A stretch of DNA of 64,000 nt from NCBI GenBank assembly GCA_045632645.1, contig JAZQXC010000003.1, positions 2,033 through 66,032 of the forward strand, read 5' to 3'. Both the position numbers and the translations under genes were made by a program. This DNA is from Alphaproteobacteria bacterium. Lineage in GTDB: Bacteria; Pseudomonadota; Alphaproteobacteria; RF32; CAG-239. Shown here in pieces: positions 42,608-58,931 of the stretch (its first letter is position 1; each line of letters opens with the position of its first letter). A model generated the notes under the pieces. The model was not told the DNA's origin, searched no databases, and was given only the letters and a program-made list of their open reading frames with translations.

Positions 42608-42662
42608 AGCAACTTTTAAGTGTTTGAAAAAATAATAATATTTTTTTTAGTAGAATTATCTA

Positions 42663-42712
42663 AAAGTATTGACAAGTGTGACACAGTTGATTTATAGTTA
42701 TGTCATAATGGT
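42663..42712 (+). promoter_or_regulatory. phage-type promoter/operator unit, copy 1 (TTGACA-N18-TATAGT overlapped by the imperfect palindrome TGACACA...TATGTCA)
   Basis: ~50 bp nearly identical to 56682-56731 (about 3 mismatches by eye). Confidence 0.55.
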
Positions 42713-42742
42713 TGAATTAGCTTTTGATAAATGCTATTTATT

Positions 42743-42766
42743 GGGCGTCTATAGGGCGCCTTTTTT
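42743..42766 (+). terminator. leader terminator 1a (GGGCG...CGCC plus T6)
   Basis: Short GC stem and T-run ~45 nt downstream of the promoter. Confidence 0.4.
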
Positions 42767-42792
42767 GTTTTTAAATTCTATTTTGTAATTTT

Positions 42793-42817
42793 GGGTAAAC
42801 ATTGTTTGCCCTTTTTT
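42793..42817 (+). terminator. leader terminator 1b (GGGTAAA/TTTGCCC plus T6)
   Basis: 7-bp stem (one G-U) with T-run, 22 nt before the ATG at 42839. Confidence 0.5.
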
Positions 42818-42838
42818 GATATTTAAAAGGAGAAAAAT

Positions 42839-43885
42839 ATGAGTATTAAACCAGCAAAAATCCAATTTAATGGTGGGGAAATTAGCCCATGGTTAGATGC
42901 GAGGTATGATATTGCAAAATTTGATAAGAGTGCAAAATTGTGTCGTAATTTTATACCACTTATTGAAGGGAGTATTAAAAGAAGAGGGGGCTCTAGATTT
43001 GTGGCTAGATGCTTAAATGATGATGGGGTTACATTTAGTATTAATCCTTATCCAAGCGAAGCTGAAGTTATTATTGATGGGGAAAAAAGAAATAATATAA
43101 AAGTGGCTAGAGGGGAGTATGTTAGCTTTGAACTTAAGATGGTGGGATATGCACCGTATAGTGGGAAAATATTAGTTAATGATGATTTATGTATTGATGT
43201 AAAACTTGTTTCTAATAGTGAAAAAAGGATATTGAAAATTATTTCTAATCCTATTGATGCAATTATTAAAATTGATGGGTATGAACGAAATGAGGGGGAA
43301 TTTGCGAAAAATTCTGAAGTTTTTTATATTGTGTATAAAGATGGGTATATTATGAAGTCTGGTAATGTGATACTTAGCGAGGATATGGAGCTTTATATTG
43401 AATTAGAAAAAGACGAGGAAGTTGTTGGAGGGGAGAGTGTTTTTGGTGACTGGGGAAGACCTGTTGGATTGATTAGTTGTAGTGCTGTTGGATATATTGA
43501 AAAGCAATATAAATGTTTTTTATTAAGATTCGAAAATGGTTATTTGCCGGTAATATTTAATGCCAATGAAAATGTTCCAAATAAAATTGATGAAACTCTT
43601 TTTTGTTATGAAAATGTTGATGGATATGATGCTGTTGTTTATAAAGGTGGCAAGTATGTTTTGTGTTATATGGAACAGGGAAGCGAAGCTTTGTATTATA
43701 AATTGCTTGATGGGACACTGATTTATGCTGTTGATTTTTTAACTCAAAAAGCTGTTGGTTGGCAAGTGAATGATGATGGAAAATATGCATCATATTATGC
43801 CAATTATGATGGGCATGTTTCTGGTAATGCTGTTAAGGTTTATTATAAAGGTAATTTGATTTGGGAATTGAAGGGGAGAAATTAA
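42839..43885 (+). CDS. phage-region hypothetical protein (beta-rich; possible tail or receptor-binding component)
   Basis: AAGGAG RBS. 348 aa. First gene after promoter/terminator unit 1. Confidence 0.5.
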   Translation: MSIKPAKIQFNGGEISPWLDARYDIAKFDKSAKLCRNFIPLIEGSIKRRGGSRFVARCLNDDGVTFSINPYPSEAEVIIDGEKRNNIKVARGEYVSFELKMVGYAPYSGKILVNDDLCIDVKLVSNSEKRILKIISNPIDAIIKIDGYERNEGEFAKNSEVFYIVYKDGYIMKSGNVILSEDMELYIELEKDEEVVGGESVFGDWGRPVGLISCSAVGYIEKQYKCFLLRFENGYLPVIFNANENVPNKIDETLFCYENVDGYDAVVYKGGKYVLCYMEQGSEALYYKLLDGTLIYAVDFLTQKAVGWQVNDDGKYASYYANYDGHVSGNAVKVYYKGNLIWELKGRN

Positions 43886-43886
43886 T

Positions 43887-46037
43887 ATGGGAAATGTGAG
43901 AAGTTTTTTAGTGCCATTTAAGTATAGTCATAAAGTGGCTTATGTTGTAGAATTTAGTCATTTGAAAATAAGGTTGTTTGCAAAAAATAAACTTGTGAAA
44001 CTTGATGGAAAAGATTTTTCAGGAAATGTTGAAGAGCTTTCTGGTGAAAATGTGGATTTGCATGCATTAAATGATGATGCTTTGGTTATTGATAGTCCAT
44101 ATAGCTATGATGATTTGTGGGATGAAGAAGATAAGTGTATGGGAATTCAGACTATTCAACACTCTGATGTGCTTTATATTTTTAATGAAAATCATCCGAT
44201 AATGATGTTAAAAAGATATTCTAATATTGATTGGAGATTAGAAGAACTTGAAATTAAAAATGGTCCGTTTATGGCGATGAATACTTCGGATATTTTAATA
44301 TCTTCTGATGGGGTTTGTGGTAATGTTAAACTTAGTGCTGATGGAGATGTTTTTAAGGATAGTGATGTTGGACGTTTGATTAGGCTTAGAAATTTTGATG
44401 ATGATACTAAAGGATGGGTTGCTGGTTATGAGTATAAAATTGACGAGTTATGCTTATCTGACAATAAGTATTATAAAGCACTTAATGGTGCAATTAGTGG
44501 AAGCCAAAAACCTGTTCATAGTATTGGGGTGAAATCTGATGGAGGTGTTAGGTGGAGATTTATTCACGATGGAATGGGGATTATTAAAATAAAAAAAATT
44601 ATTGATGCGCGAAATGTTGAAGGAGAAGTTTTATCTAGGCTTCCTGATACGATTTTAAATGGAACGTTATATTGGGAATTAGGAGTTTTGCACAATGGTA
44701 TTAAGCACCCAAAATCGGGTGCTTTTTTTAGGAACAGATTTTGCTTTTTAGTAAATACTGATACAGGGCCTAATGTTTGTATGTCTTGTGTTGGTGATTA
44801 TAATAATTTTGCTGATTTAGATGTTGGAGAAGCAACAGCAGAAACGGCTATAACTGTTCCTGTTTTGAATACGGAATTTAATGAAGGAAAATGGTTATAT
44901 GCTGGAAGTTCGCTGTTTGTTGGAACTGGTGCTTCTGAGTTTTATATTGATGTGATGTCAACGTCTTCAGGACTTTCTTCTGATAATGTGAAAATAGTGC
45001 AAATTTCTAATGTTGGAAGTAAGGGAGTTATGCCTGTTAATGTTGGAAGTAATGTGTTTTTTGTTGATAGATATGGGCTATCTATTAGAGATTTATCGTA
45101 CGATTATTATAGTGAAGGATATAAAGAGATTGATATTTCTATATTGGGAAAACATTTATTTTCATCTAGAATTATTGGAATTAGTTTTCAGGAAACACCT
45201 GATAAGATTTTATGGTGTTTGATGGCTGATGGAATGTTGGTTGCGATGACGTTTTCTCAAGAACAAGAAGTTGTGGCTTTTTCTAGACATGATTTTAGTG
45301 GAGATGTTGAAAGTATGGCTATTGTTCCTAATTTTGAAGATTGTTGTGATGAAATGTGGGTTGTTGTTAGTAGAACTATTAATTCTGCTAAATTTAGAAG
45401 TGTTGAAAAAATAGAGCAAGGAATGCCGTTTACTTATCCTTTAAGTGTTTTAAAAGAAAATAATTTGGCTAAAAAGGAGGATATTAAAAAAGAATATATC
45501 AAAAATCAGGCAATATATTTGGATGGATTTGTGTTGTTTGAAAGAGGTGAGCTTGATGAGTGCGAAGAAGTTTCCGGTTTAGAGCATTTGGAAGGAAAAA
45601 AAATCAAAGTTTTTGCTGATGGAAGTGTTGAAGATGATCAATTTGTAATTGGTGGAAAAATAACTATTAGTAAAAATTGGGTTAGGGTTTTGATTGGTTT
45701 ACCAATAGTTAGCCAATTTATTCCACAGCTTAATTTTATTGAAAATCAAATGGGGAGTGGCTTAGGGCAACGTCAGAGAATAAATCATGTTTTGCTTATG
45801 CTTTATATGTCTGGTGGAGGCAAAATTGGGCCTTATGAAAATAATTTACATGAAATTTGTTATCGCTTGAGTGATGACGAAATGAATGTTTCTAAAGAGC
45901 TTTTTTCGGGTAAAAAAGAAATTTTATTTAATGGGGCAACAAGTGTTAATGAAACTGGAGCGATGTTGATGATTGAAAATGATAGCCCAATGCCGATGAA
46001 TATTTTGGCAATTGTTCCGTTTTTAGATGTTAATTAA
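43887..46037 (+). CDS. large phage structural-like protein (716 aa; tail hub/nozzle or fibre-like)
   Basis: Translationally coupled to the upstream gene. Size and beta-rich composition only. Confidence 0.5.
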   Translation: MGNVRSFLVPFKYSHKVAYVVEFSHLKIRLFAKNKLVKLDGKDFSGNVEELSGENVDLHALNDDALVIDSPYSYDDLWDEEDKCMGIQTIQHSDVLYIFNENHPIMMLKRYSNIDWRLEELEIKNGPFMAMNTSDILISSDGVCGNVKLSADGDVFKDSDVGRLIRLRNFDDDTKGWVAGYEYKIDELCLSDNKYYKALNGAISGSQKPVHSIGVKSDGGVRWRFIHDGMGIIKIKKIIDARNVEGEVLSRLPDTILNGTLYWELGVLHNGIKHPKSGAFFRNRFCFLVNTDTGPNVCMSCVGDYNNFADLDVGEATAETAITVPVLNTEFNEGKWLYAGSSLFVGTGASEFYIDVMSTSSGLSSDNVKIVQISNVGSKGVMPVNVGSNVFFVDRYGLSIRDLSYDYYSEGYKEIDISILGKHLFSSRIIGISFQETPDKILWCLMADGMLVAMTFSQEQEVVAFSRHDFSGDVESMAIVPNFEDCCDEMWVVVSRTINSAKFRSVEKIEQGMPFTYPLSVLKENNLAKKEDIKKEYIKNQAIYLDGFVLFERGELDECEEVSGLEHLEGKKIKVFADGSVEDDQFVIGGKITISKNWVRVLIGLPIVSQFIPQLNFIENQMGSGLGQRQRINHVLLMLYMSGGGKIGPYENNLHEICYRLSDDEMNVSKELFSGKKEILFNGATSVNETGAMLMIENDSPMPMNILAIVPFLDVN

Positions 46038-46059
46038 GGAGTTTTGAAAGGAGTATATA

Positions 46060-47370
46060 ATGGTGAAAGGTTTAACTAATGCTAGAGTTGTTTTGGATGT
46101 GGCGTCTGGCTCTGGTGGTGATAAGGTTTGGGCGTTAAAGGGATTTGGTGCACCTAAAAACAAAGGCGATAAGGTCTTTATAAGAAAAAATCTTAAAGGC
46201 GATTTGATGCCGATTACGAATTTTGCTGACCCTAGTGCTACTTCTGCATATTGTAAAAATGATGGTTCGGTTATTGCACATTTAACTTCTAACAGTTTTA
46301 TGTTATATGATTTGGCTTATGGTACTACATATAGTGATGGAATGTTACTTGGTAAACCAACAGAAAGCAGGCAATATCATAGAACTAAAAGACTTGGTGA
46401 TAAAGTTGTTTTTTATTCAGATTCAGATGTTAGTGATGGAACAACACACGATATAATTGCTGGAAAGACAACGATTGTAGAAATATATGGCAAGTTTTTA
46501 AGAGAAGATTTGGTTTTACAATATGTTTCTGATAATAATTTTAAGCTTCAGAGATATGATATAGATACTAACACTTATGGAGAAGATTTAGGCAGTATTA
46601 ATATAGGTGAAGGTAGTAATGTTTATTATGTTGCTGATGTTGTATTAGATGGAAATATACTTCTTGTTGGAAAAAGAAGAAAAAGTTATGCCGAATATTG
46701 GTCTTGTTTTTATGATGTTAGTGATTTGCATAATCCGATACTATTAAATAAAACTAAGATGATTTCGGAGTCTAAGATATATTGTGCGACAGGATTGAGA
46801 GTTGGAGAGTATATCATTACAAGAGGCTCATCTCACCTTGATACATATACTAAGGACACAACACATATATATCAAATTAAAGAAAACTATACACTTGGTA
46901 GTGCTGATAATATAAATGATGAAATTGTTTATTTGTTATCTGGTGTATCAACTGTGTGTTATAATGAAGAAAATAAAATTTTATCTATTGGTGGTAATTT
47001 CTTTAAGTATGAAGATGGTAAGTTTAATCGAATTAGAATTGGGTATGGGATGCTTGCAACAAATGTAACAACCCTTCCTAGTGCTTTTATATTATCTGAA
47101 AATTTAGAAACGTCTGCTAGGATTTTTACTTATAAAGCGTCATCATCTAACGTCAAACGATTAAATGTATATAGACAAGCTGATCTAGATGCAAATTGGT
47201 TTACAACAAGCGATATGATATCTGATGTTTTTACTGGAATATATACAGGTAGAACAGATGAAAATGATAGGGTTGAGGTAGAGTCTATTTTACCTGCTAA
47301 AGTTAACCTAACTGTTGTAACAGATGTTGATGTTAGTGATGGTGAAATTATATTTGAGGGGGTAGCGTAA
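46060..47370 (+). CDS. phage tail-fibre-like protein (436 aa)
   Basis: Thr/Ser/Gly/Asn-rich, beta-rich. Couples to the next gene (ATGA overlap). Confidence 0.45.
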   Translation: MVKGLTNARVVLDVASGSGGDKVWALKGFGAPKNKGDKVFIRKNLKGDLMPITNFADPSATSAYCKNDGSVIAHLTSNSFMLYDLAYGTTYSDGMLLGKPTESRQYHRTKRLGDKVVFYSDSDVSDGTTHDIIAGKTTIVEIYGKFLREDLVLQYVSDNNFKLQRYDIDTNTYGEDLGSINIGEGSNVYYVADVVLDGNILLVGKRRKSYAEYWSCFYDVSDLHNPILLNKTKMISESKIYCATGLRVGEYIITRGSSHLDTYTKDTTHIYQIKENYTLGSADNINDEIVYLLSGVSTVCYNEENKILSIGGNFFKYEDGKFNRIRIGYGMLATNVTTLPSAFILSENLETSARIFTYKASSSNVKRLNVYRQADLDANWFTTSDMISDVFTGIYTGRTDENDRVEVESILPAKVNLTVVTDVDVSDGEIIFEGVA

Positions 47371-48947
47371 TGACATCTTTAGAGAAGAAAGCATTTAAAG
47401 GTTTAACAACTGGGATTAAGGTTAGAAAACCTCGTTATTATTATCAGGATATTGTTGAAGTATATAATGAAGATACAATAAAAAACATTGAGCTTACAAA
47501 ATTTGAAGGACTTGAGTATAATGTGAACCAAAGAGTGATTAGGTTTAAAGAAAAAACTTTGTGGAACAATACCATATCTCCATATATTATGAGAATTTTA
47601 GCACCTTATAATGATGAAAAGTATTTAGCTTTGGCTAGATTTGTTAATTATAATATTGTTGGTTCTCCTGATATTAAAGAGGGTGTTGCAAGTGGCTTTA
47701 GTTCTTCTGATTATATTCTTGTACCAGAGCCTTTTAATCCTAAAGCTAAAACTTGGGAAATTGTTATAAAATGTACAACAAGTGATAGTTTTGTTAATGA
47801 GAGTTATCTTTATGGTAATAAAAGCACAAATAGGTCAACTCCTCAATTAGCCACATCTGCAACAGGTAATATTAAAATATATATGGCAAGTACAACAGGC
47901 AGTTGGAATATTGCAGATAATGTTCTATCTGAAAATGTGCTAGAGGTAAACACAACTTATTATATTAAAACTTCTTTTGATGGGGCTAATTATATTGTTA
48001 GCGTTAGAAAAGATGGAGAAAGTGAATGGGTTGAGTTTATTAATATTGCATCAACCTTGACAATATATGGTACTGACCAATTAGAGCTTGCTATTGGAAT
48101 GGATAGTGGTAATCAACCTTGGAATGGTAGTATCGATTTAAATGAGTGTCATATTATAGTTGGTAGTGCTATTTTATGGGGAAAGGATGCAAATAATATT
48201 TTTGAGCTAAAGGGTTGTTTGCTTGAAGATGGTAGTCGTTTATCTGCATATAACACAGCATTTTGTGGTGGCGGTGAAGTTCTATTAAGTTCATCTGACA
48301 ATGATAGGGAAGGATATGCTTGGGGTGGTAAAATTGATTTTCCTCCTGAGTTGCCTTTTTATAAAGCTTATAAGATAAACTATAATATTGTAGGTAAAAT
48401 GTTATACAGTTGTATAAATCGTTATGATTATGATAGTAGTTTGAGCGATGCATATATCACAGGATATAAAGCTAGAGGATTTGATGCCTCAAACTATATT
48501 GAGATACCAGCTATGAAAAATTATAATAGTTATGAGATGGTGTTTAGAGGTGGTATATATAATCAGACTGGTGGACATTTAGTATGGGGCGATAATACAT
48601 CATCATTTTTTATACAAACAAACTCTAAAAAGTTATCTATTTCTAAAGGCTCTACTTATGTTGGTACTAATGTTATACCTATCGATACAATATATGAGTT
48701 TAAGCTTGTATGGGATGGTACAAACTCTACTTGGTATTCAAGGGTTGCAGTTCCATATGGAGCTTTAGAAAATCCTTGGGTACTTGAGGGGACAAAAAAC
48801 ATCGATTTGTTTGATGGAGCTAATGTTCTTAGAATTGGAGGACCTTCTACTAGTACATCGTATTATTGGAAGGGTGATATAGATTTGTTAAACAGCTATA
48901 TAAAGGTTGATGATGAATATTATTGGAAGCCTTTAACTGAGGTGTAA
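47370..48947 (+). CDS. phage tail-fibre or receptor-binding-like protein (525 aa; lectin/LamG-like segments suspected)
   Basis: Composition typical of fibre proteins. Hairpin downstream. Confidence 0.45.
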   Translation: MTSLEKKAFKGLTTGIKVRKPRYYYQDIVEVYNEDTIKNIELTKFEGLEYNVNQRVIRFKEKTLWNNTISPYIMRILAPYNDEKYLALARFVNYNIVGSPDIKEGVASGFSSSDYILVPEPFNPKAKTWEIVIKCTTSDSFVNESYLYGNKSTNRSTPQLATSATGNIKIYMASTTGSWNIADNVLSENVLEVNTTYYIKTSFDGANYIVSVRKDGESEWVEFINIASTLTIYGTDQLELAIGMDSGNQPWNGSIDLNECHIIVGSAILWGKDANNIFELKGCLLEDGSRLSAYNTAFCGGGEVLLSSSDNDREGYAWGGKIDFPPELPFYKAYKINYNIVGKMLYSCINRYDYDSSLSDAYITGYKARGFDASNYIEIPAMKNYNSYEMVFRGGIYNQTGGHLVWGDNTSSFFIQTNSKKLSISKGSTYVGTNVIPIDTIYEFKLVWDGTNSTWYSRVAVPYGALENPWVLEGTKNIDLFDGANVLRIGGPSTSTSYYWKGDIDLLNSYIKVDDEYYWKPLTEV

Positions 48948-48963
48948 ATGATAGAGTGATGAT

Positions 48964-48982
48964 AAGGCGCTTTTAGCGCCTT
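48964..48982 (+). terminator. hairpin (AAGGCGC/GCGCCTT) after the fibre gene; weak T-tract
   Basis: 7-bp perfect stem. Confidence 0.35.
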
Positions 48983-48987
48983 ATTTT

Positions 48988-49380
48988 ATGGAGGTGGTTT
49001 TGAAAAAATATATTTCAAAAAAAGAACGGATGGTTAATAAGGTTTTAGAAGAATTAAGGGGTGGTAAATCTCTTTATGCTTCGTGCTTTGAGGTTGGAAT
49101 TAGAACAGGGGAATTTTATGATTTTATAGCTAAAAATGATAAAGCTAAAGAAAAGTATTTATTTGCGCTTACGGATTATGCTGATAAATGTGTTGATGAT
49201 ATTAGAGGGATTGTTGATGAGCTAAAAAAAGGAGAAATTGATAATTCAACAGCTAAATTGTTGATTGATACATTAAAATGGCTTGTGAGCAAAAGTAATC
49301 AAGATGTTAATGGAGTGGGAAGTAATGATAGCGAAGCTGGAGATGAGGACTTTAAAGAAATTGTTGTAAAATTTGTATAG
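48988..49380 (+). CDS. putative terminase small subunit
   Basis: Sits immediately upstream of the large terminase. ~130 aa with an HTH-like N-terminus. Alternative TTG start at 49000 behind GGAGG. Confidence 0.4.
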   Translation: MEVVLKKYISKKERMVNKVLEELRGGKSLYASCFEVGIRTGEFYDFIAKNDKAKEKYLFALTDYADKCVDDIRGIVDELKKGEIDNSTAKLLIDTLKWLVSKSNQDVNGVGSNDSEAGDEDFKEIVVKFV

Positions 49381-49392
49381 TGGGAGTTTTTT

Positions 49393-50691
49393 ATGAAGGT
49401 GGAATTACCAAGAGCATTTCAGGAGTTATTAACTGCAAAGGCTAGGTATAAATTGTTTTATGGTGGAAGAGCTGGTGGGAAATCTTTTGCTTTTGCTGAT
49501 GCGTTATTAATAAAAGCAACTAGTAAAAAAATGCTTATTGCTTGTGTTAGAGAAGTTCAAAACTCTATTAAAGATTCTGTTTATAAATTGATTGCAGATA
49601 GAATTAGCTTTTATGGCTTAAAAGAGTATAAGCTTTATGAGGATAGGATTGTTAATTTAAAGAATAAATCAAAATTTATTTTTAAAGGTGTGTTAGAACA
49701 ACATTCACAAAATATAAAGTCTTTGGAAGGGGTGGATATTTGTTGGTGTGAAGAAGCGCAAAAAATATCGGCAAGAGCTTGGGAAATTTTGGACCCAACA
49801 ATTAGAAAAGATGGTTCTGAAATTTGGTTATCAATGAATAGGGAAGAAGAATGTGATCCAGTTTGGAAGGCTCTTGCCTTAAAGGCTTATGATGATGTTA
49901 TACTTAGAAAAGTAAATTATTATGATAATCCTTATTGCCCTTTGGGAATGAAGAAGCTTGCTTTGAAGATGAAGGAGGAAAATTATGAAGAGTATCTTCA
50001 TGTGTGGGAAGGAGAGCCTAGATTAGAGGCAGGAAATCATTTAATTGGACGTGAAGAAGTATATAAGGCTTTTGAGGGAAATAGGGTAAATTTGATGGGG
50101 TATGCACCTTTAATTATTGGGGTTGATGTGGCAAGATTTGGCGATGATAAGACTGCTATTTGTTTTAGGCGTGGAAGAGTGGTTGAAAAATTTTTATTGT
50201 TTGAAAAATTAGATGTTGTTCAAGTTGCGCACCAAGTGTCGGGGATTATTGCAGAGTATAATCCGGTCAGAGTTTGTATTGATATTGGTGGATGCGGTGC
50301 TGGTGTTTATGATGTTTTAGTTAGTAATGGATTTTTAGATATTTTGGTGGCAATTAATTTTGGGCAGAAGGCTGAAAATCCTGAAAGATATGTTAATCGT
50401 AGAGCAGAGATGTGGGATAGAGTTAGAGAATGGCTTAAGTCTGATGTTGGTGTTTTTTTGCCTAAGGTGGATGGTGTTGTTGAAGATTTGACAGCTCCAT
50501 TAAAAATTTATGATAGCATTGGAAGACTTCAGCTTGAGGCTAAATCTGAGATTAAAAAACGCATAGGACACTCAACAGATGTGGGTGATGCGTTGGCGCT
50601 AACTTTTGCGATTAAAAATGTGGAGTATCTAACGAGTATAAGTAGGTTAAAAAGAGGAGGTGAGTATGTTGATGATGGGGTTTATTTGTAA
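49393..50691 (+). CDS. terminase large subunit (PBSX/XtmB-like family)
   Basis: KLFYGGRAGGKSFAFADALLIKA Walker A. 432 aa. C-terminal nuclease-like acidic residues. Confidence 0.8.
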   Translation: MKVELPRAFQELLTAKARYKLFYGGRAGGKSFAFADALLIKATSKKMLIACVREVQNSIKDSVYKLIADRISFYGLKEYKLYEDRIVNLKNKSKFIFKGVLEQHSQNIKSLEGVDICWCEEAQKISARAWEILDPTIRKDGSEIWLSMNREEECDPVWKALALKAYDDVILRKVNYYDNPYCPLGMKKLALKMKEENYEEYLHVWEGEPRLEAGNHLIGREEVYKAFEGNRVNLMGYAPLIIGVDVARFGDDKTAICFRRGRVVEKFLLFEKLDVVQVAHQVSGIIAEYNPVRVCIDIGGCGAGVYDVLVSNGFLDILVAINFGQKAENPERYVNRRAEMWDRVREWLKSDVGVFLPKVDGVVEDLTAPLKIYDSIGRLQLEAKSEIKKRIGHSTDVGDALALTFAIKNVEYLTSISRLKRGGEYVDDGVYL

Positions 50692-50712
50692 TTTGTTATT
50701 TAATTTTATTTA

Positions 50713-50735
50713 AGAGAGCTTGGCTCTTTTTTTTT
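50713..50735 (+). terminator. hairpin plus T9
   Basis: AGAGC/GCTCT plus TTTTTTTTT. Confidence 0.45.
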
Positions 50736-50756
50736 GTTTATTTTATGGAGGTATTT

Positions 50757-52379
50757 ATGTTTGAAAATTTGAATCAAAAAGATAAATTAAAGTATAAATC
50801 TAAGATTGTTGCTGATGATATTTTGGGAACATTTGAGGCAATGAAAAAAGAACGAAAAGAGTGGGAGCCTATGTGGAATAAGGCTGCTGAAATGTGTGCT
50901 ATTAATTCTAAACTTTTTAATAAAGATGAAAATGGTAGGCATAGGCAAACTATATTTGACAGTACAGCTCGTAATGCTTTAACTTGTTTTGCGGCGAGCT
51001 TAAAATCTGTTATTGTGCCAACTACATCTAAATGGCATAGATTAAAAGCAGTGGATCCTAAACTTGATGAAAATGATGAGGTGAAGAAATATTTAGAATA
51101 TGCAACAGATTTGTTATTTAGAGTGAGATATTCATCTAAAGCAAATTTTGCTAGCGAAAGTGATTTGATGTTCAATCAACTTGGTATTTATGGACATGCT
51201 CTTTGGATGGTTGATGATGAAGTTGGTAAAGGAATTGTGTATAGAGCTATTCCTGTTAATGAGGCTTATATTAAGAGGAATGATAGAGGCGGCATTGAGT
51301 GTGTTATTAGAGAGTATGAGCTTAGCGCTAAAGAGGCATATGCTAGATTTGGTGATAAGGTTTCAGGTGAGATAAAGAGGGCATTAAGTGGAGCGCCTAA
51401 TCGTTTATTTAAGTTTATTCATGCTGTGTTTGAAAAAGAGGACTATGATGTTAAGAAAAAAGATAGTAAAGGAATGAGATTTGCAAGTGTTCATTTGGAG
51501 GTTGGTAATAGAAAAATTGTGCAAGAAGGGGGATATAGATGTTGTCCGTATATGGCGCCTAGATTTTTGGGGATTCCTGGTAGTTCTTATGGAGATAGCC
51601 CAGCTTTGCAAGCTTTTTATGATATGCTTACAGCTAATGAAATGGGAAAAACTATTCTTAGAACAGGGCAATTACAGGCAAATCCTCCGATTTTGACTAA
51701 TATGGGGTTGATTGATACTAATAAGTTAGGGTCTGCTGGGGCTGTGATTAGAGGTGGTCTTGATAATCAGGGGAGACCAGCTGCTGTTTCTATGCAATAT
51801 GGGAATAATCTTTCTATTACTATTGAAATGCAACGAGAAATTAGAGCTTCTATTGAGAGAGCATTTTTGGTGCCTTTGTTTCAATCTTTGACACAATCAA
51901 AGCAGATGACTGCAACTGAAGTTGAAAAAAGAGAAATGGAAAAATCTATGCTTTTGGCTCCTATGTGTGAAAGAATTGCTTCTGAATGGTTGACTGGAAA
52001 TATTGAAAGAGAGCTTGATATTTTAATGTCTTATGGAATGCTTGATGGTGTGCCAGATGAGTTGATGAAAGAGGGGGCTATTGCTATAGAGTTTGAAAGT
52101 CCGGCTGTTCGTATGCAAGATGCTAGTTCTATTATGGGGCTTTATAAAACAGTTGAAGCTGCAGTGACTTTGAGCCAGTCAAATCCTTCTGTTCTTGATA
52201 TATTTGATATGGAGAGTGCTCTTCGTAAAATTGCTGATTATCATGGAGTTGATAGTAGCATTGTTAGAACTAAAGAGGATATCGAAATGTTAAAGCTTAG
52301 GGCTTCAATGAAAAATGCTGAAGCAATGATGGGCGTTGTTGCCAATCCATTAATGTCTGCAATGAATAGCATTAAATGA
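50757..52379 (+). CDS. putative portal protein
   Basis: Position after the large terminase. 541 aa. Start placed at the ATG behind GGAGG. Confidence 0.5.
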   Translation: MFENLNQKDKLKYKSKIVADDILGTFEAMKKERKEWEPMWNKAAEMCAINSKLFNKDENGRHRQTIFDSTARNALTCFAASLKSVIVPTTSKWHRLKAVDPKLDENDEVKKYLEYATDLLFRVRYSSKANFASESDLMFNQLGIYGHALWMVDDEVGKGIVYRAIPVNEAYIKRNDRGGIECVIREYELSAKEAYARFGDKVSGEIKRALSGAPNRLFKFIHAVFEKEDYDVKKKDSKGMRFASVHLEVGNRKIVQEGGYRCCPYMAPRFLGIPGSSYGDSPALQAFYDMLTANEMGKTILRTGQLQANPPILTNMGLIDTNKLGSAGAVIRGGLDNQGRPAAVSMQYGNNLSITIEMQREIRASIERAFLVPLFQSLTQSKQMTATEVEKREMEKSMLLAPMCERIASEWLTGNIERELDILMSYGMLDGVPDELMKEGAIAIEFESPAVRMQDASSIMGLYKTVEAAVTLSQSNPSVLDIFDMESALRKIADYHGVDSSIVRTKEDIEMLKLRASMKNAEAMMGVVANPLMSAMNSIK

Positions 52380-52399
52380 TGTTTTTTTATAAAAAGAAA

Positions 52400-52422
52400 A
52401 ACCGTCGATTGTCTCGACGGTT
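52400..52422 (-). terminator. terminator of the minus-strand kinase gene (9-bp perfect stem AACCGTCGA/TCGACGGTT, T-run on the minus strand)
   Basis: Read directly. Confidence 0.6.
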
Positions 52423-52433
52423 CTTAGATTAGA

Positions 52434-53972
52434 TTACATTACATTGTAATTTGGGGTGTATATATTCTGATTAGCATGGTCGTGGCTAGGCTTATTGAAC
52501 AAGTCTGCTAGACCATTGATTGGAATATATGCGTAATTTGGGCGAGATGTTACTTCGTATTTTACCTCATAGAGGTTTTTGCGTAATATCTCTAGACTTA
52601 ACCATGGGTCTGATAATTTATGGTCACCTAAAAACTCTCTTGATACTTCGTTTATAAGAGGTTTTATAGCTTCTAGTCCCCATTTTTTACGTTCTTCTTT
52701 TATTTCTTGGTTTGGAGCGTTTGAGGTATAGTCTTCAACAGCGACAGCGCCTAAGTATCCTTTTATAGAACGATACATGCCTGCGATATCTCGAACGCTT
52801 ATGTATTTTTGTTTGCGCTCTCTCATTGGAAGAGCAGGTTCGCCAGCAAAATCAATGAAGCGTAAGTCATTGTCTGGGGTAACCATAACTTGACCTAAGT
52901 GGAAGTCACCATGTACACGATGGGTTAGGGTTGTTGATTTACCTTCTCTTATGGCCTTTAATTTTGGGGAAATAAACTCATGAGTGTATTCTTCCCAGTG
53001 CATGATTAAATCTTGAGCTTTTTCTTTTGTGTCAGTTGGAAGATCAGCTAATTTTTCGATAATGTCTCTTTTTGTTTGATATAAGAGTACTTGAAGATTT
53101 TTTTCATAAATGTTGATGAAGTTTTCATCAGGTAGTTGAGGAGTAAACTCTTCTTTTTCATCTGGTCTTGATAAACATTCATTCATTTCTTTTGTTCGTT
53201 TGCTCAATGTTCTTATTAAATCCATAAATTCAGGATTGTCATTGGCTGTAATATCTCTTTGGATTAGATAATTTATACGAAGTTTTTCTTGGAGAATTGA
53301 TTTTAAGTAATTCCACATATCGCCTTTGTTTGGTACAAACTCTTGAATAACACCACCTGATGCTTCAACACCTTCTGGTGTTCTCCAAATTAGACCACCA
53401 TATGTTTGAGGCATGAATGTTGCTTCTTCACGCATGAGCTTTTCGTTCATCTCAAACTCTGAATTAATATCTGGTGAAAATTCTAACATGCGCTCTAGTT
53501 TGAAAGCAAGTTTGCCATCGCCAATTTTGAGCGTGGTGTTACTTTGTTCTACACCAAGTGCTTTTGATGTTTCATCTTTGTGTTCTTGTAACATATCTTT
53601 GGAATTATAAATTGTTGTGCTTTCTAGTGACCAACCATTTGGAAAAGTGATTTTGCCATTATTTTCTCTCATTAATTGGGTGAAAGATTGCCAAAAATCA
53701 GGCTCTATAGTGGCATCTGTGTAGTAATAGCCATCGTCTAGAAAAAGAAAATTCCCCTTTTGGGGTGGAGTCTCTTTTATAGCAAGTGGCATGGAAAAAA
53801 AGCGTTTTGTATTGTCATCTAAGGTAACTTCGCCGATTACGAATAATTTGTTATTATTATCAAAGGGAAGTTGTTCTAGAGCAAGGGAGGTTACTTGATT
53901 GTTTTCAATCTTGGTTTTAAAATCACACCAACGGCATTCGTGGATGTAATTAAGAATTTTTGTGGTATTCAT
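52434..53972 (-). CDS. maltokinase-like protein (Mak/Pep2 family, APH-fold kinase)
   Basis: VHGDFHLGQVMV and IDFAGEP match the Mak catalytic and Mg-binding motifs. Start at ATG 53972 behind AAGGAA. Confidence 0.65.
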   Translation of the reverse strand: MNTTKILNYIHECRWCDFKTKIENNQVTSLALEQLPFDNNNKLFVIGEVTLDDNTKRFFSMPLAIKETPPQKGNFLFLDDGYYYTDATIEPDFWQSFTQLMRENNGKITFPNGWSLESTTIYNSKDMLQEHKDETSKALGVEQSNTTLKIGDGKLAFKLERMLEFSPDINSEFEMNEKLMREEATFMPQTYGGLIWRTPEGVEASGGVIQEFVPNKGDMWNYLKSILQEKLRINYLIQRDITANDNPEFMDLIRTLSKRTKEMNECLSRPDEKEEFTPQLPDENFINIYEKNLQVLLYQTKRDIIEKLADLPTDTKEKAQDLIMHWEEYTHEFISPKLKAIREGKSTTLTHRVHGDFHLGQVMVTPDNDLRFIDFAGEPALPMRERKQKYISVRDIAGMYRSIKGYLGAVAVEDYTSNAPNQEIKEERKKWGLEAIKPLINEVSREFLGDHKLSDPWLSLEILRKNLYEVKYEVTSRPNYAYIPINGLADLFNKPSHDHANQNIYTPNYNVM

Positions 53973-54081
53973 ATCAAAAGATTCCTTTATTATTGTTTTT
54001 ATGATTGATGTATATAATACTAAAAAATACTTGTCAAAGATTCTTTTTATTTTTATTTTGAAAAAAAAAGGAGTATTTGGC

Positions 54082-56217
54082 ATGAATAAATTAACTAATT
54101 TAGCAGAGATGGTTGGAATTTCATCTTCTTATATTGATAAAACAGGTAAAAAGCATGATACACCTGATGATGTACGCAGATTTTTTTTAGAGGCTATGGG
54201 GATAAAAGCGAAGAATGATAATGAAATAGAAGCTGAAATAAAAAGAGTTTTAGAGCCTTTGTTAATTGAAGAAGTGCTTGCGTTTTATGAAGATGAAGAA
54301 ATTTTAATCAAAATTAAGGCAAATGGAGTCTTTAAGGTTATTTTGAGTAATGAAGATGGAGAGCTTGTTGAAGAATTAAAGGTTAATGGCAATGAGGATT
54401 TTTCTTTTAGGGTATCTGAGTTCGGTTATTATAATCTAAAAGTTGAAGAAGAAGGTGGTGATAAAAAGGCTGAAAGTTTTATAATTTATGCACCAAAGTA
54501 TTGTTATTTGCCTCAATTTATAAAAAATAAAGAACATATTTTTGGTGTGTCTTTGATGATGTATGCACTGAAGTCTGAAAATAGTATTGGTATTGGGGAT
54601 TTTGGTGATTTGGAGGAAATTGTTAAGTTAACTGCTAAAAATGGTGGTGATGTTGTTGGGCTTAGTCCTTTGGGAGCGATGAGTCCTTATACTCTTCCTA
54701 AATCTATACTTAATATGTTTAAGGGTGATGTTTCTCCGTATAGAACGCTAAGTAGGTTATTTATAAACTATGCATATATTAGTTTGAAAGATGTTGAGGA
54801 TTATAAAAACTCTGCTGATGTTTTGAGTTTTATGAATGATGAAGGAGTTAAAAATGAAATTAGGCGCTTAAATGAAAGCGATAAAGTGCTTTATACTCCT
54901 GTATTAATGTTAAAGCTTAAAATTCTTACAATGATGTATAAGGAATTTATTAAAAACGGAAGTATTGAGAGAAAAAATGAGTTTTTAAGATATAAAGATG
55001 AAAAAGGGGAAGAATTATATAATCTTTGTTTGTTTGAAGCATTATTAGAGCGAAATAGAGGAGTTCCTTTTTGGCGTTTTTGGATGGATGGGACTGATGA
55101 TATAAATTCTTTGGTTACAAGAAAATTTGCTGATGAGAATAAAGAACGTATTGATGTTTTTGCTTATTGTCATTGGCTTGCTGATTTGCAACTTAAAAAA
55201 TTGCAGAATTTAGCGATTGAACTTGGAATGAAAGTTGGACTTTATACGGATATGCCGATTGGAGCTGCGTCTAATGGAGCTGAAGTTTGGGAAAATACTG
55301 AAGCATATGTTTTAGATGCTGGAATTGGTGCGCCGGCTGACCCAATGAGACCAAGGGGACAAAGCTGGGGATTTACTCCTTATCATCCTCATGTTTTAAG
55401 AAAGCAAAAGTATGCGCCTTTTATTAAACTTGCTCGTGAAAATATGATAAATTCTGGTGCGTTGAGAATTGACCATGCTATGGGATTGTTAAGATTGTTT
55501 TGGGGATTTTTTGAAGAAGGAAATCCTGTTGTGCAGGGTGCGTATGTGTATTATGATATGAAGGTTTTAACTGCGATTTTGGCTGTTGAAAGTAATAGAG
55601 CTAAATGTTTAATTATTGGAGAAGATTTGGGTACGGTGCCGGAAGGATTTAGAGAATATATGGCAGAACATGGACTTTTATCTTATAAAGTATTCTTTAG
55701 GCAAAAAGAAAAAGATGGTAGTTTTATTAAACCTTGTAACTATGATTATATGTCTTTGGCACAATCTTCTACTCATGACCAAGCAACAAGTGTTGGTTTT
55801 TGGTGCAATGAAGATATTGAAGTGTTTAAAAAGTGTGGTTTGTATGTTAATGATGAACAATATGTATCTAATTTGCAAGGACGCCAAAAAGATAGAGTTA
55901 ATATGATTAAAGCCTTTGATGAACTTGGTATTGTTGATGAAAAATTAAAAGGTGAAATGATTGATAGTGCTGAAAAAGGTGATGATGTGCCTGATGGGAT
56001 TGAGCGTGTGGTTAATGTGTTTGGAGCTAAAACTAATAGCGCATTGTATTTGGTTAGGTTGTGTGATATATTTGCGCAAAAGGTTTTGGATAATGCTCCA
56101 GGAACTATTGATGAATATACTAACTGGCGTGTTAAACTTGGTTGTGATATTGAGATGATTAAAAAATCAGATTGTTTTGAGAATGTTATGAATGATATTA
56201 AAAAATATCGTTCTTAA
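54082..56217 (+). CDS. malQ: 4-alpha-glucanotransferase (amylomaltase, GH77)
   Basis: GIGDFGDL, LRIDHAMGL and GEDLGTVP signature motifs. Start at ATG 54082 behind AAGGAG. Confidence 0.85.
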   Translation: MNKLTNLAEMVGISSSYIDKTGKKHDTPDDVRRFFLEAMGIKAKNDNEIEAEIKRVLEPLLIEEVLAFYEDEEILIKIKANGVFKVILSNEDGELVEELKVNGNEDFSFRVSEFGYYNLKVEEEGGDKKAESFIIYAPKYCYLPQFIKNKEHIFGVSLMMYALKSENSIGIGDFGDLEEIVKLTAKNGGDVVGLSPLGAMSPYTLPKSILNMFKGDVSPYRTLSRLFINYAYISLKDVEDYKNSADVLSFMNDEGVKNEIRRLNESDKVLYTPVLMLKLKILTMMYKEFIKNGSIERKNEFLRYKDEKGEELYNLCLFEALLERNRGVPFWRFWMDGTDDINSLVTRKFADENKERIDVFAYCHWLADLQLKKLQNLAIELGMKVGLYTDMPIGAASNGAEVWENTEAYVLDAGIGAPADPMRPRGQSWGFTPYHPHVLRKQKYAPFIKLARENMINSGALRIDHAMGLLRLFWGFFEEGNPVVQGAYVYYDMKVLTAILAVESNRAKCLIIGEDLGTVPEGFREYMAEHGLLSYKVFFRQKEKDGSFIKPCNYDYMSLAQSSTHDQATSVGFWCNEDIEVFKKCGLYVNDEQYVSNLQGRQKDRVNMIKAFDELGIVDEKLKGEMIDSAEKGDDVPDGIERVVNVFGAKTNSALYLVRLCDIFAQKVLDNAPGTIDEYTNWRVKLGCDIEMIKKSDCFENVMNDIKKYRS

Positions 56218-56248
56218 TAAGTCTTATAAATAATGTTGTAAAATTGAA

Positions 56249-56273
56249 GGAGTGCTTTGGCGCTCCTTTTTTT
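56249..56273 (+). terminator. conserved hairpin motif, copy 1 (GGAGTGC-TTTG-GCGCTCC plus T7)
   Basis: One of three related hairpins (see findings). Confidence 0.55.
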
Positions 56274-56301
56274 GTTGTAATTTTTTTATTGGAGAAAAGA
56301 T

Positions 56302-56640
56302 ATGTTTTTAAAAAAGGCAAAAAGAGAACTACAATTAGTTAAAGCTTTTCAGGAGTTATTTTTAGATGATAAAAAGGAGCTTAAAGATGCGGGAAAGATT
56401 GTTATTTCTTTTTTGAGAGATGAGGTTGGGGGACGTGGTGAATTGGGGAAGAATGGAGTTCCTTATTTTTATGATAGTAATAATAGTTTTGATGTGGGAG
56501 CTGCGGGATTTTTGCTTGGTAAAAGAAGAGTGTTTGATTTGATTATTAAATATTTATCACTTGATGAAAGAGAAATATTTAAGCTTATTAGCGTTAGTAA
56601 AAAACGTGATGAGAATTTTGATGATGAAATTAATGTTTAG
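56302..56640 (+). CDS. hypothetical protein (112 aa) in the phage region
   Basis: GGAG RBS. No domain recognised. Confidence 0.45.
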   Translation: MFLKKAKRELQLVKAFQELFLDDKKELKDAGKIVISFLRDEVGGRGELGKNGVPYFYDSNNSFDVGAAGFLLGKRRVFDLIIKYLSLDEREIFKLISVSKKRDENFDDEINV

Positions 56641-56681
56641 TTTATTTGGAATTAAAAAAATAAAAATAGATTGATTAAAAA

Positions 56682-56731
56682 GTATTGACAAGTGTGACAT
56701 AGTTGGTTTATAGTTATGTCAGAATGGTAGA
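56682..56731 (+). promoter_or_regulatory. phage-type promoter/operator unit, copy 2 (TTGACA-N18-TATAGT with perfect 7-bp palindrome TGACATA...TATGTCA)
   Basis: Near-identical to 42663-42712. Confidence 0.55.
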
Positions 56732-56735
56732 AGAG

Positions 56736-56758
56736 GCATCGATTTGATGTCTTTTTTT
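56736..56758 (+). terminator. leader terminator 2a (CATC/GATG plus T7)
   Basis: Short stem and T-run. Confidence 0.35.
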
Positions 56759-56765
56759 GTTTTTA

Positions 56766-56789
56766 GGCGCTGAAATAGCGCTTTTTTTT
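56766..56789 (+). terminator. leader terminator 2b (GGCGCT/AGCGCT plus T8)
   Basis: 6-bp GC-rich stem plus TTTTTTTT. Confidence 0.6.
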
Positions 56790-56803
56790 ATATTTAATTT
56801 TGA

Positions 56804-56828
56804 GGATTGCTTTGGCAGTCCTTTTTTT
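56804..56828 (+). terminator. conserved hairpin motif, copy 2 (GGATTGC-TTTG-GCAGTCC plus T7)
   Basis: Covaries with copy 1. Lies inside the TTG-initiated ORF extension, which is therefore rejected. Confidence 0.55.
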
Positions 56829-56859
56829 ATTTGTGTTTAACATTTTTTGTGAGGAAAAT

Positions 56860-57585
56860 ATGAGAAAATTTAATAAGCCGGAGGGGCAGACTACCTCCGA
56901 TAACTTTCTTAAGTCTGAAATTGAAAAAGACTTTTTGCGCGCACAATCTGGTTGGGGTGAGGTGAGCGATGATGATCTTTCGTATATCAGTAATAAGGGT
57001 TTTAAATCTCCTTCTGATTTACTTAAATCTTATCGTGAGTTAGAGCGAGTTTATTCGTCTAAAGTCAGCATTCCTCGGGACGGCGATAAAGAGGGCTTTA
57101 GTAAACTTTATTCTAGGCTTGGTATGCCTAAAGATTTGGACGGATTTAATATTGAATTTCAAGATGAAGATAAAGAACTTGGAAGTCAATTTACGAAAGT
57201 ATGTCTTGAAAATAATATTCTGCCTCAGTCTGCAAAAGCTCTTTATGAATGGTTTGTTAAATCTAGAGAAGATGCAGAAAATGTGATGAATCAAGATTGG
57301 GAAAATCAATCTTTTTTACAGATGAAGGAAGTGGAAGAAAGTTGGGGCGCTAAGGCTAAACAAAACATCGAATTAATGAAAAGAGGTATTAGACTTGTTT
57401 CTGATGATGAAGATGTAATTGAAAATATGGAAAGAGCCTTGGGTACTAAGCAAATGATGGAAACATTTTGTAAGCTTGGAGAAGCCGTTTCTGAAGATAA
57501 TCCGGTTAGTTTTGGAAAAAGAGGGAGGACTGATGATGATTGGTCTGCGGTGGAATATTTTAGAGAAATGTTTAATGATTATTAA
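56860..57585 (+). CDS. putative scaffolding protein (acidic, helical)
   Basis: Position between portal and coat. 241 aa, acidic, helix-rich. Start at the ATG behind GAGG. Confidence 0.4.
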   Translation: MRKFNKPEGQTTSDNFLKSEIEKDFLRAQSGWGEVSDDDLSYISNKGFKSPSDLLKSYRELERVYSSKVSIPRDGDKEGFSKLYSRLGMPKDLDGFNIEFQDEDKELGSQFTKVCLENNILPQSAKALYEWFVKSREDAENVMNQDWENQSFLQMKEVEESWGAKAKQNIELMKRGIRLVSDDEDVIENMERALGTKQMMETFCKLGEAVSEDNPVSFGKRGRTDDDWSAVEYFREMFNDY

Positions 57586-57609
57586 TTTTTAATTTGAAAG
57601 GAAAAAATA

Positions 57610-58509
57610 ATGGCTAGTACATTAAAAGAAATTGCGGTATCGCTCTCTAAGAAACAGGAGCATTATGTTGATAGTTTAACTGAAGAATCTCCAATTTTAG
57701 ATAATATGCGTTTTGAACCTTCTACCCATGGTTTATGGAATGCATATGAAGAAGTTGCTAGAATTGAAGGTGCTGGTTTTGTTGATATTAATCAACCATT
57801 GCCTGAAATGGAAGTTGATTCTAATTTGAAAAAAATTGATTTATCTATTTTGGGTGGTGAAATTTTCTTGCCGGAGGATAAAGGCTCTGTTATTGGTGTT
57901 AGTGAATATTTTGGTAAGAAAGTGCCTGTGCTTTTGAAACATGCAGGTCAAACAGCTGAAAAGAAAATAATTTATGATAACTTTATCCCTTATGCTGTAA
58001 ATAATGGTAAGGCGCAAAATTCTGGTGCTGAAGAAAATTGTTATTCTATGGTGGCTGTTAGATTTATTGATGGAGAAGTAACAGGTTTATATTCTCAAAG
58101 CAATATTAATCGTTTTGGACTTTTAGATTCTAGACCTATTAATGGTGGTGCACTTTATAAAAATCATGATGGTGTGCTTGGATATGGTTTGAGACTTAAA
58201 GGCTATATTGGTATGCAACTTGCTAACAAAGATGCTGTTTCTGCTATTGTTAATATTAACCAAAACAATATTCCAACAGCTGACCAAATCGATAATATGC
58301 TTGTTGATGCAAAAGCAACTCCTGGTTCTACATTTATTTTCTGTCATCCTAAAGTGTTGTCTATGCTTAATCAATATAAAGGTAATATTTTACAAGCATC
58401 TTCATATGATTTTGATGTTAATAGAAGCTTTATGGCATGGAATGGCATTCGCTTTATTACATCTTATAACTTTAAAAATGGTACGGAAGAAGCTGTTAAA
58501 TTAGCGTAA
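57610..58509 (+). CDS. putative major capsid protein
   Basis: 299 aa immediately after the scaffold-like gene. P22-like gene order. Confidence 0.45.
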   Translation: MASTLKEIAVSLSKKQEHYVDSLTEESPILDNMRFEPSTHGLWNAYEEVARIEGAGFVDINQPLPEMEVDSNLKKIDLSILGGEIFLPEDKGSVIGVSEYFGKKVPVLLKHAGQTAEKKIIYDNFIPYAVNNGKAQNSGAEENCYSMVAVRFIDGEVTGLYSQSNINRFGLLDSRPINGGALYKNHDGVLGYGLRLKGYIGMQLANKDAVSAIVNINQNNIPTADQIDNMLVDAKATPGSTFIFCHPKVLSMLNQYKGNILQASSYDFDVNRSFMAWNGIRFITSYNFKNGTEEAVKLA

Positions 58510-58531
58510 TTTATTGATAGGAGTGAAAGTA

Positions 58532-58906
58532 ATGTTGAAAAATATATTAAAAGTATATGGCGAAGATTTAGTTAATGGTGATTTGGCTTTATCTTCTATT
58601 GAAGGAGGAAAACCTGTTTGCGCAGGTGGAACATGTGGTGCATTATGTGTTAATGTTTTTGCTAAAGGTGATGTGGTGTTGGCAGAAGATGTTAACGTTA
58701 GTGTTAAACATGGTGATACTATTGATGGTGGTTTTGCTGAATTGTTTGCTATCAACCTTGAAGGAGGGGCTCAATATAAAGATGGTGACTTAATGGCGAC
58801 TACTACTATTTCTGAAACAGCAAAGGCTTATTTGGTTGCTGATGTTGTTAGTAATGAAGCTAATAGTGGTGGTGTTCGAGTTACTCTTGGATATTTAGCT
58901 AGATAG
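58532..58906 (+). CDS. phage-region hypothetical protein (Gly-rich, 124 aa)
   Basis: Start at the ATG behind AGGAG. The track ORF uses an upstream TTG. Confidence 0.4.
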   Translation: MLKNILKVYGEDLVNGDLALSSIEGGKPVCAGGTCGALCVNVFAKGDVVLAEDVNVSVKHGDTIDGGFAELFAINLEGGAQYKDGDLMATTTISETAKAYLVADVVSNEANSGGVRVTLGYLAR

Positions 58907-58931
58907 TTTTTATTATTATTTTTAAGTTAAA

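Follow-up and report, generated by a model that had tools for sequence, protein, structure and literature searches.

The 64,000-nucleotide stretch of DNA analyzed here, called the window throughout (assembly GCA_045632645.1, contig JAZQXC010000003.1, positions 2,033 to 66,032), is a piece of the chromosome of a Gram-negative bacterium with 32% G+C. Alongside housekeeping genes (for a CcrM-type methylase, HPr, EIIA, an IHF/HU-type protein, and a PBP5-type carboxypeptidase, together with lolA, holB, rlpA, and tmk), it carries a cluster of phage-type structural genes in two plus-strand operons, each headed by a copy of the same promoter unit with tandem intrinsic terminators behind it. Operon 1 (42839-56640) comprises head-fiber-like and nozzle-like genes, two open reading frames (ORFs) without assignment, terS, terL, a portal gene, malQ, and a Bbp19-like gene. 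Operon 2 (56860-64000) comprises a probable scaffold gene, a probable major capsid gene, small ORFs, a tail tubular protein A-like gene, genes for internal virion proteins, and the first part of a gene for a giant internal protein. We consider it probable, at roughly 60%, that both units serve as Q-type, promoter-loaded antitermination controls, acted on by a factor that was not found in the window.

A repeated promoter unit at the heads of two operons

A first-pass annotation, made from the letters of the window, had reported a block of about 50 bp present twice, with a near-consensus sigma-70 promoter in each copy, and both statements held. Similarity between the copies extends over 66 nt at 88% identity (42651-42716 against 56667-56732), and the 37-nt core within it, TTGACAAGTGTGACAYAGTTGRTTTATAGTTATGTCA, has two exact matches in the window, both on the plus strand, at 42669 and 56685, with none in 100 dinucleotide-preserving shuffles. 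The copies are direct repeats 14,016 bp apart. Each contains TTGACA-N18-TATAGT, which scores 11/12 as a sigma-70-type promoter, and together with one other 11/12 site they are the top matches of this kind between 42 and 58 kb. A profile made from 32 orthologous units matched only these two places in the 64 kb (E = 6.5e-10 for copy 1, PA, and 1.5e-9 for copy 2, PB) and found no copy in the host part of the window. Used together with the promoter scan, it revealed no internal promoter of the unit type or of comparable strength within operons 1 and 2.

Both units read on the plus strand. In PA (42651-42716), the -35 hexamer TTGACA lies at 42669-42674 in the conserved context AAAGTATTGAC, and the -10 hexamer TATAGT lies at 42693-42698 after an 18-nt spacer. 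Columns conserved among 33 units mark a TGACA at 42679-42683 inside that spacer; its family consensus is TGWCR, and it is a candidate factor-binding element. Just downstream of the -10 hexamer, the unit alignment picks out a second, -10-like sequence, CATAAT, followed by GG (42704-42711), a candidate sigma-dependent pause element overlapping the predicted transcription start at A42705. PB (56667-56732) repeats this plan, with TTGACA at 56685-56690, the TGWCR-type TGACA at 56695-56699, TATAGT at 56709-56714, and CAGAAT plus GG at 56720-56727, the predicted start being A56721.

Terminator scanning and folding also agreed with the claim that two terminators follow copy 1 and three follow copy 2 before the first ORFs, at 42839 and 56860. 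In the PA leader, hairpins at 42743-42761 and 42793-42811 each end in U6 (whole features 42743-42767 and 42793-42817). The second of them, whose sequence recurs in the related locus L001, folds alone at about -10 kcal/mol; the -24.4 kcal/mol of the whole 116-nt leader includes a weak upstream stem. In the PB leader, hairpins at 56729-56757 (-12.2 kcal/mol, U7, feature end 56764), 56765-56783 (-9.1 kcal/mol, U8, feature end 56791), and 56802-56823 (-12.9 kcal/mol, U7, feature end 56830) follow one another, the first beginning within ~16 nt of the predicted +1, and the leader as a whole has a z score of -5.0 against shuffles. Further terminator-like hairpins on the same strand lie inside the operons, between terL and the portal gene (50712-50730), after malQ (56246-56269), before the tail tubular A gene (59776-59800), and before ORF 60692 (60649-60668).

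Conservation of the unit among gut and rumen species

Orthologous units occur in about 25 species, known from metagenome-assembled genomes (MAGs) of gut and rumen Alphaproteobacteria. Our alignment held 33 of them, from the window and about 24 related loci (numbered with an L below), and 22 non-redundant units once those at least 90% identical had been dropped. The shared plan begins with an A/T tract and an extended -35, AAA(G/C)TATTGAC(A/T), of which AAAGTATTGAC is the form named above. The TGWCR pentamer follows 4 to 5 bases past the -35 as a block of conserved columns, and a TTGAC(A/T)-N17/18-TATAAG-like promoter is present in 33/33 units, its -10 varying among TATAAG, TATAGT, and TATGAT at a spacing of 17 to 18 nt and often preceded by the TGn of an extended -10. 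Next come YATNNT-GG, a purine run, and a terminator. Within 200 nt, hairpins with a T-run number at least one in each of the 33 units and two or three in about half of them. Their sequences vary from species to species, and beyond about +15 the leaders differ between units in both sequence and length.

The letters AT..TGG stand at a constant 29 to 30 nt from the -35 hexamer in all 33 units. If numbering assumes the usual start about 7 nt past the -10, YATNNT falls at -1 to +5 with GG after it; on this scale A+1, T+5, and G+7 are present in 22/22 non-redundant units and T+2 and G+6 in 21/22, and information content has its maxima at +1, +2, +5, +6, and +7. YATNNT, 5 to 6 bp past the -10, is a second -10-like hexamer that has both critical positions (A2 and T6), and a discriminator-like GG comes after it. 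As a second promoter with TGWCR for its -35, it would have a spacing of about 20 nt, which is too long, and that reading was rejected. The first-pass annotation had likened the arrangement to the late PR'-tR' layout of lambda and P22; the presence of YATNNT-GG in 22/22 non-redundant units, and of at least one terminator behind 33/33, supports the likeness. On the DNA side, these two features define Q-type antitermination (PMC6606751; 10.1101/2024.11.20.624540).

Units number one to three per cluster and stand at operon heads in the sense orientation. Type A units occupy the interval between gtrII and the first plus-strand gene in nearly all loci. Type B units precede the scaffold gene in the window and in L012, L014, L016, L017, L024, L025, and L032, and further B-type units precede cargo genes inserted ahead of the scaffold in L004, L011 (two), L015, L019, and L020 (two). 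A profile search of about 450 kb of loci from the L011/L037 species, covering the distal end of the cluster and the host flank, found no copy.

It had been suggested that copy 2 was duplicated through an insertion of the genes mak and malQ into operon 1. Six species free of mak and malQ (L012, L014, L016, L017, L024, and L025) have a unit at the same Bbp19-like/scaffold junction, so that insertion did not create copy 2. A weaker form of the duplication idea survives, in which extra units go with cargo insertions (L011 and L020) and none is found at uninterrupted Bbp19-like/scaffold junctions (L018, L021, and L022). The A unit of the window and of L001 has B-type features, with GTCATAATGG instead of TATCGTGG, whereas L002 and L003 retain the A-type sequence, which suggests gene conversion between the two unit copies in the window/L001 lineage.

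Insertions into the cluster at L004 (11075-12016), L032 (13876-14931), and L006 (5274-5882) consist of ankyrin-repeat-like cargo genes and small membrane proteins, and in L004 the ankyrin-repeat-like gene shares its cargo segment with a B-type promoter unit. A different element of about 150 nt replaces the second unit in L013 (11906-12111) and L023 (676-940); it contains long-range complementarity, GGGGCTCGTATAATACCTGTCATGATTGC ... ACAGGCATTCTCCGAGCCC, and has no Rfam match at E<=1.

The structural-gene cluster and its chromosomal setting

Functions in the two operons were assigned with Pfam, NCBIfam, and PHROG. The portal is T7-type, the nozzle-like gene has a weak Pfam match below the family cut-off, and the Bbp19-like ORF 56302 takes its label from PF25181, found on one homologue. 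In operon 2, the probable scaffold matches phrog_3742, a family of unknown function, and was assigned by its position before the capsid gene; the probable major capsid protein has a weak match to phrog_212 (E = 0.0021) and is 73-89% identical across species. Other matches in this operon are to phrog_394 and phrog_418. The ORF for the giant internal protein extends past the end of the window; a homologue search with this truncated ORF found nothing, and an LPD23 giant-protein homologue is present in L030 and L032. Exact-match look-ups of ORF 61567 gave no record, and ORF 61110 turned up only on contigs shorter than 3 kb. A megablast search of 42600-57600 against a phage collection gave no DNA match to known phages, and the phage relatives of the portal are distant podoviruses only, at less than 37% identity.

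Between the portal and Bbp19-like genes, 52434-56217 holds host-type carbohydrate genes. These are mak, on the minus strand at 52434-54083, a putative maltokinase (TIGR02457, 9.8e-56, below the curated cut-off), and malQ, a GH77 4-alpha-glucanotransferase (1.3e-93); the names come from the first-pass annotation and were upheld by the family matches. Their starts abut or overlap near 54082, and read-through from PA would cross mak antisense. The same insertion is found in L001-L003 and L032.

Relatives of the portal, at 65-88% identity, occur in 25 species-representative genomes, every one a MAG of Alphaproteobacteria from gut or rumen. Most of these loci keep the cluster syntenic, and in 19 of the 25 a divergent gtrII-like gene adjoins it. 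The usual gene order starts with gtrII on the minus strand, then terS, terL, small ORFs, portal, and Bbp19-like, then scaffold and capsid, leading on to tail tubular A, head-fiber, nozzle, and internal proteins; in the window and L001-L003, the head-fiber/nozzle block stands ahead of terS and mak/malQ stands after the portal. Because lolA or ORF 39943 lies close to gtrII in about ten loci, the chromosomal neighborhood is conserved as well. ORF 39943 itself (39943-40944, 333 aa) has no family or fold match and stays near lolA and gtrII; its homologues with names belong to Alphaproteobacteria or "Acetobacter sp." MAGs (83 clusters). In L002 (11630-21626) and the equivalent stretch of L003, no gene similar to the Bbp19-like, scaffold, or capsid genes was seen in the 10 kb past the portal and malQ, and the second operon there is either elsewhere in the genome or lost.

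Host genes stand at each edge of the cluster that was reached. On the left in the window these are tmk, ORF 39943, and gtrII. At the right end in the L011/L030/L037 species, the cluster closes with a 1871-aa LPD23-containing protein and a 423-aa ORF, and NUDIX, SDR, hydrolase, MarR, nitroreductase, and HIT genes come directly after; in the L011/L037 species (L037 1-11272) host genes bound the cluster on both sides, with gtrII on the left. Across about 20 strains of that species, the flanking genes from NUDIX to HIT are mostly 97-100% identical and the 423-aa ORF is 71-100% identical, a variability that would be expected of a diversifying receptor-binding fiber. This last gene (L037 10001-11272; same position in L039-L085) has no family match.

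Only structural and packaging genes were found in the cluster, with no lysogeny module inside it and no integrase, replication genes, or repressor on either side. Between the window and L001, ratios of nonsynonymous to synonymous substitution (dN/dS) for cluster genes are 0.07-0.17 at dS values of 0.8-1.2, and the dS of malQ is in the same range. The structural genes are under purifying selection, and because they are also intact, they must be expressed under some condition. With the lack of integrase, replication, and repressor genes, the low dN/dS, and a dS like that of malQ, the cluster looks like a vertically inherited, functionally constrained structural-gene element, a domesticated podovirus remnant resembling a gene transfer agent (GTA). 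A literature search found no published description of this alphaproteobacterial cluster; a Faecalibacterium element has been named the first podovirus-like GTA-like element (PMC12946183).

The interval between gtrII and PA contains a block, TTAGTCAAT...AAAATATGCACAATTTGTTTAA, kept in all species. In the window (42552-42660) and the orthologous intervals, it can be written TAGTCAA(N)..AAAATATGCACA(N)..TTTAAG. Its minus strand reads TTGACT-N17-TAnnCT just ahead of the gtrII start codon, ATG; this could be a promoter giving gtrII an almost leaderless transcript, and the ATATGCACAATTTGTTTAA part of the block could be a shared regulator site. Far from the cluster, a 48-nt direct repeat, 75% identical, lies at 2089-2136 and 3763-3810, just upstream of two large adjacent ORFs without family match (2192-3748 and 3825-5810) that adjoin a tRNA-Thr gene (5911-5986).

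Proposed antitermination at the promoter and its alternatives

Sigma-dependent pause elements are -10-like sequences in the transcribed region, often accompanied by a discriminator-like sequence (PMC9191641), and Q requires both a pause element and a binding element between the -35 and the -10 (PMC6606751). The conserved parts of the unit probably work in the same way. RNA polymerase with the housekeeping sigma would start at about A42705 or A56721 and, without the factor, would halt at the tandem terminators, so that its only products would be RNAs of about 40-110 nt. As a sigma-dependent promoter-proximal pause element, YATNNT-GG (about -1 to +7) would keep the polymerase beside the TGWCR site in the spacer. 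There a DNA-binding antiterminator, functionally like Q, AlpA, GafZ, or BrrG, would load on the polymerase, and the modified enzyme would pass the leader terminators as well as the internal terminators of both structural operons. The short terminated RNAs would then be by-products.

Two features of the layout bear on how such a factor would work. Because the first B-type hairpin begins within so few nucleotides of the predicted start, resistance to it must be conferred from DNA at the promoter, which disfavors RNA-based mechanisms of the nut or put type. Because terminator-like hairpins recur at 50712, 56246, 59776, and 60649 and the operons contain no other good promoters, processive read-through is implied.

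Several points weigh against promoter-loaded antitermination. The start site, the pause, factor binding, and read-through of terminators are all steps that we infer from DNA sequence. TGWCR is short, and part of it might be present in a strong promoter in any case. Long A-type leaders hold extra conserved, unstructured A/T-rich blocks, GTTGAATC, TTTTTAAAGTTTAAATTT, and TGAATGTCAT, which are reduced in copy 1 of the window and for which the antitermination model does not account. Family scans (Pfam, PHROG, and NCBIfam) of nearly all window ORFs of at least 80 aa and of the small ORFs of the cluster gave no match to a Q-, AlpA-, GafZ-, or BrrG-like antiterminator or to the NusG family, and AlphaFold2 models of two conserved neighbors, the Bbp19-like ORF 56302 and ORF 39943, had no match in the PDB. 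The same scans found no sigma-like protein or NusG paralogue among these ORFs. This agrees with the first-pass annotation, which had seen no Q-like gene in the window. In related loci, the accessory ORFs encode small membrane proteins, ankyrin-like cargo, and products without assignment, with no obvious regulator among them. The factor may be encoded elsewhere in the genome, as GTA regulators are.

Other explanations keep parts of this pattern and lose others. Under a NusG-paralogue route of the RfaH or LoaP kind, which we think unlikely, the stretch from +1 to +12 (ATNNTGGAAGAG) would be an ops-like site recognized on the non-template strand of a paused elongation complex, replacing both the sigma pause and the promoter-embedded site. 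Such a route would suit a conserved element in the transcribed leader of long operons with internal terminators, and the failure to find a Q-like gene in the window ORF scans favors it; on the other side, the element keeps its fixed 29- to 30-nt distance from the -35 in 33/33 units, the letters in it that never vary coincide exactly with A2 and T6 of a -10 hexamer plus GG, as fits sigma region 2/1.2, no NusG/KOW protein was seen in the window, and the conserved spacer motif is left without explanation. Rather unlikely, in our estimate, is that the units are constitutive short-RNA genes or insulators making mainly abundant small RNAs of 40-110 nt, with the structural genes relying on leaky read-through or other promoters. 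A strong promoter followed by efficient terminators makes short RNAs regardless, and lambda PR' makes 6S RNA. The transcripts past about +15, however, are unconserved in sequence, length, and structure, both between A and B units and among species: RNAalifold found no consensus structure in 12 long A-type leaders, and Rfam gave nothing credible, either in a gathering-threshold scan of the window or in E-value scans of both leaders. The position of the units at operon heads in sense orientation and the lack of other promoters of comparable quality within the operons also count against this explanation, and with it against the first-pass suggestion of paralogous small RNA genes.

A palindrome, TGACATA-N13-TATGTCA, had been put forward as an operator, and one could build on it a CI/Cro-like repressor site, TGACAYA-N13-TRTGTCA, with read-through left to an RNA element of the put or nut kind or to leakage. 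The 7-bp inverted repeat of copy 2 is perfect, spans the -10, and was equalled by only 6/200 shuffles, and some units repeat the TGWCA pentamer at the -35, within the spacer, and shortly ahead of +1. In copy 1 the match is 6/7, and the repeat is missing from most orthologous units, whose best inverted repeats are no better than shuffles; what is kept is a single TGWCR pentamer in the spacer, and we rejected the conserved-operator reading of the palindrome. With no space in B-type leaders for an RNA of the put or nut kind ahead of terminator 1, and neither a repressor gene nor a lysogeny module in the cluster, repressor control seems improbable. Leader-peptide attenuation, in which an NTG at +4 to +6 opens a short ORF whose translation governs terminator formation, was likewise rejected as very improbable: ATG, GTG, TTG, or CTG does stand there in nearly all units with short ORFs after it, and several A-type leaders encode MEECISKKLNL..., but the ORFs are inconsistent between units, ranging in length from 2 codons to over 27 (the stop falls at codon 3 in L022, 6 in L010, and 8 in L016), with frames broken by 2-nt indels, no Shine-Dalgarno sequence, and CTG and CTA variants. 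It is hardly conceivable that the units are recombination scars or att-type repeats flanking a mobile 14-kb segment, an alternative that the first-pass annotation had also raised. The repeats are direct, and the gene order between them is rearranged relative to other species; yet clusters of differing gene order have one, two, or three orthologous units at operon heads, internal to the cluster and not at its boundaries, the units diverge as the species do and have an internal promoter geometry, and no integrase or transposase is nearby.

If the units are antitermination controls, they are close in plan to the late PR' promoters of lambdoid phages, which have a Q binding element, a sigma-dependent pause element, and tR' and work with the Q proteins of lambda, 21, and 82. 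Common to both are a sigma-70 promoter near the consensus, a conserved motif between its -35 and -10, a -10-like element that lies shortly past the -10, keeps A2 and T6, and leads into discriminator-like G's, and one or more intrinsic terminators ahead of long structural operons holding more terminators. Unlike the single PR' of a phage with a Q gene, two or three units occur per cluster here, in a chromosomal locus of structural genes only, and no Q homologue or analogue was found in the window. The two or three tandem terminators, the first of them (B-type) so close to the start, also differ from lambda tR', which lies at +194. Like the units, HK022 put and lambda N-nut combine a promoter, a leader, and terminators before phage operons, whereas B-type leaders leave no room for an RNA element and no leader structure is conserved.

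Among GTA systems, PbgtA-K of the Bartonella GTA (BaGTA) has TTGACA-N17-TATCAT, a NANNNT 5 bp downstream, a terminator, and the Q21-like protein BrrG (10.1101/2024.11.20.624540). It shares with our cluster an alphaproteobacterial host, a constitutive TTGACA-type promoter, a leader terminator, and a domesticated capsid cluster. It differs in having one promoter, a leader of about 860 nt, and one mapped terminator, against leaders of 40-180 nt, tandem terminators, and multiple units here; in its BrrG gene, at a separate locus, for which no equivalent was found in the window; and in its capsid lineage, ours being another, podovirus-like one. In the Caulobacter GTA (CcGTA), the GafZ binding element (ZBE) lies between the -35 and the -10, and terminators lie inside the cluster (PMC11150451). 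A putative factor element in the spacer and antitermination through terminators of the cluster would be common to both, and the CcGTA regulators are encoded elsewhere in the genome; its promoter, in contrast, needs GafY and IHF, whereas the promoter here looks strong alone, and a -10-like pause element is not mentioned for it (neither "10-like" nor "pause" occurs in the text of PMC11150451). Pseudomonas aeruginosa AlpA, a small DNA-binding antiterminator, acts at PalpB from a promoter-internal site, binds RNA polymerase, and brings about bypass of an intrinsic terminator (PMC9371919). We propose a similar factor site within the promoter and a similar bypass downstream, but no Phage_AlpA-type protein was detected in the window, and AlpA targets lysis genes where the operons here are phage structural ones. 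The Faecalibacterium element FpGTA (PMC12946183) is, like this cluster, a podovirus-like, GTA-like element of a gut bacterium, with a host in another phylum.

A broader proposal, which we put forward tentatively and would not bet on, is that the units are the control switches of an undescribed podovirus-derived GTA-like element, fixed in gut and rumen Alphaproteobacteria before their split into at least 25 species and run by an antiterminator of a new family, encoded elsewhere, that would load at TGWCR and the pause a few bases before the first hairpin. If the antitermination reading is right, the cluster joins BaGTA and CcGTA as a third independent particle system of phage origin in Alphaproteobacteria that is gated by promoter-proximal antitermination, and it would support the proposal that antitermination is a general switch for such elements. 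The compact, stereotyped unit, with a strong promoter, a predicted pause at the start site, a hairpin from about +16, tandem terminators, and two or three copies, would lend itself well to a search for the factor and to asking at how early a point an antiterminator has to load. The host element may itself be a new kind of GTA-like cluster. Carried by Alphaproteobacteria that are common in human and ruminant guts, it is a candidate vehicle of gene transfer within the gut microbiome, a context that may outweigh the unit in importance.

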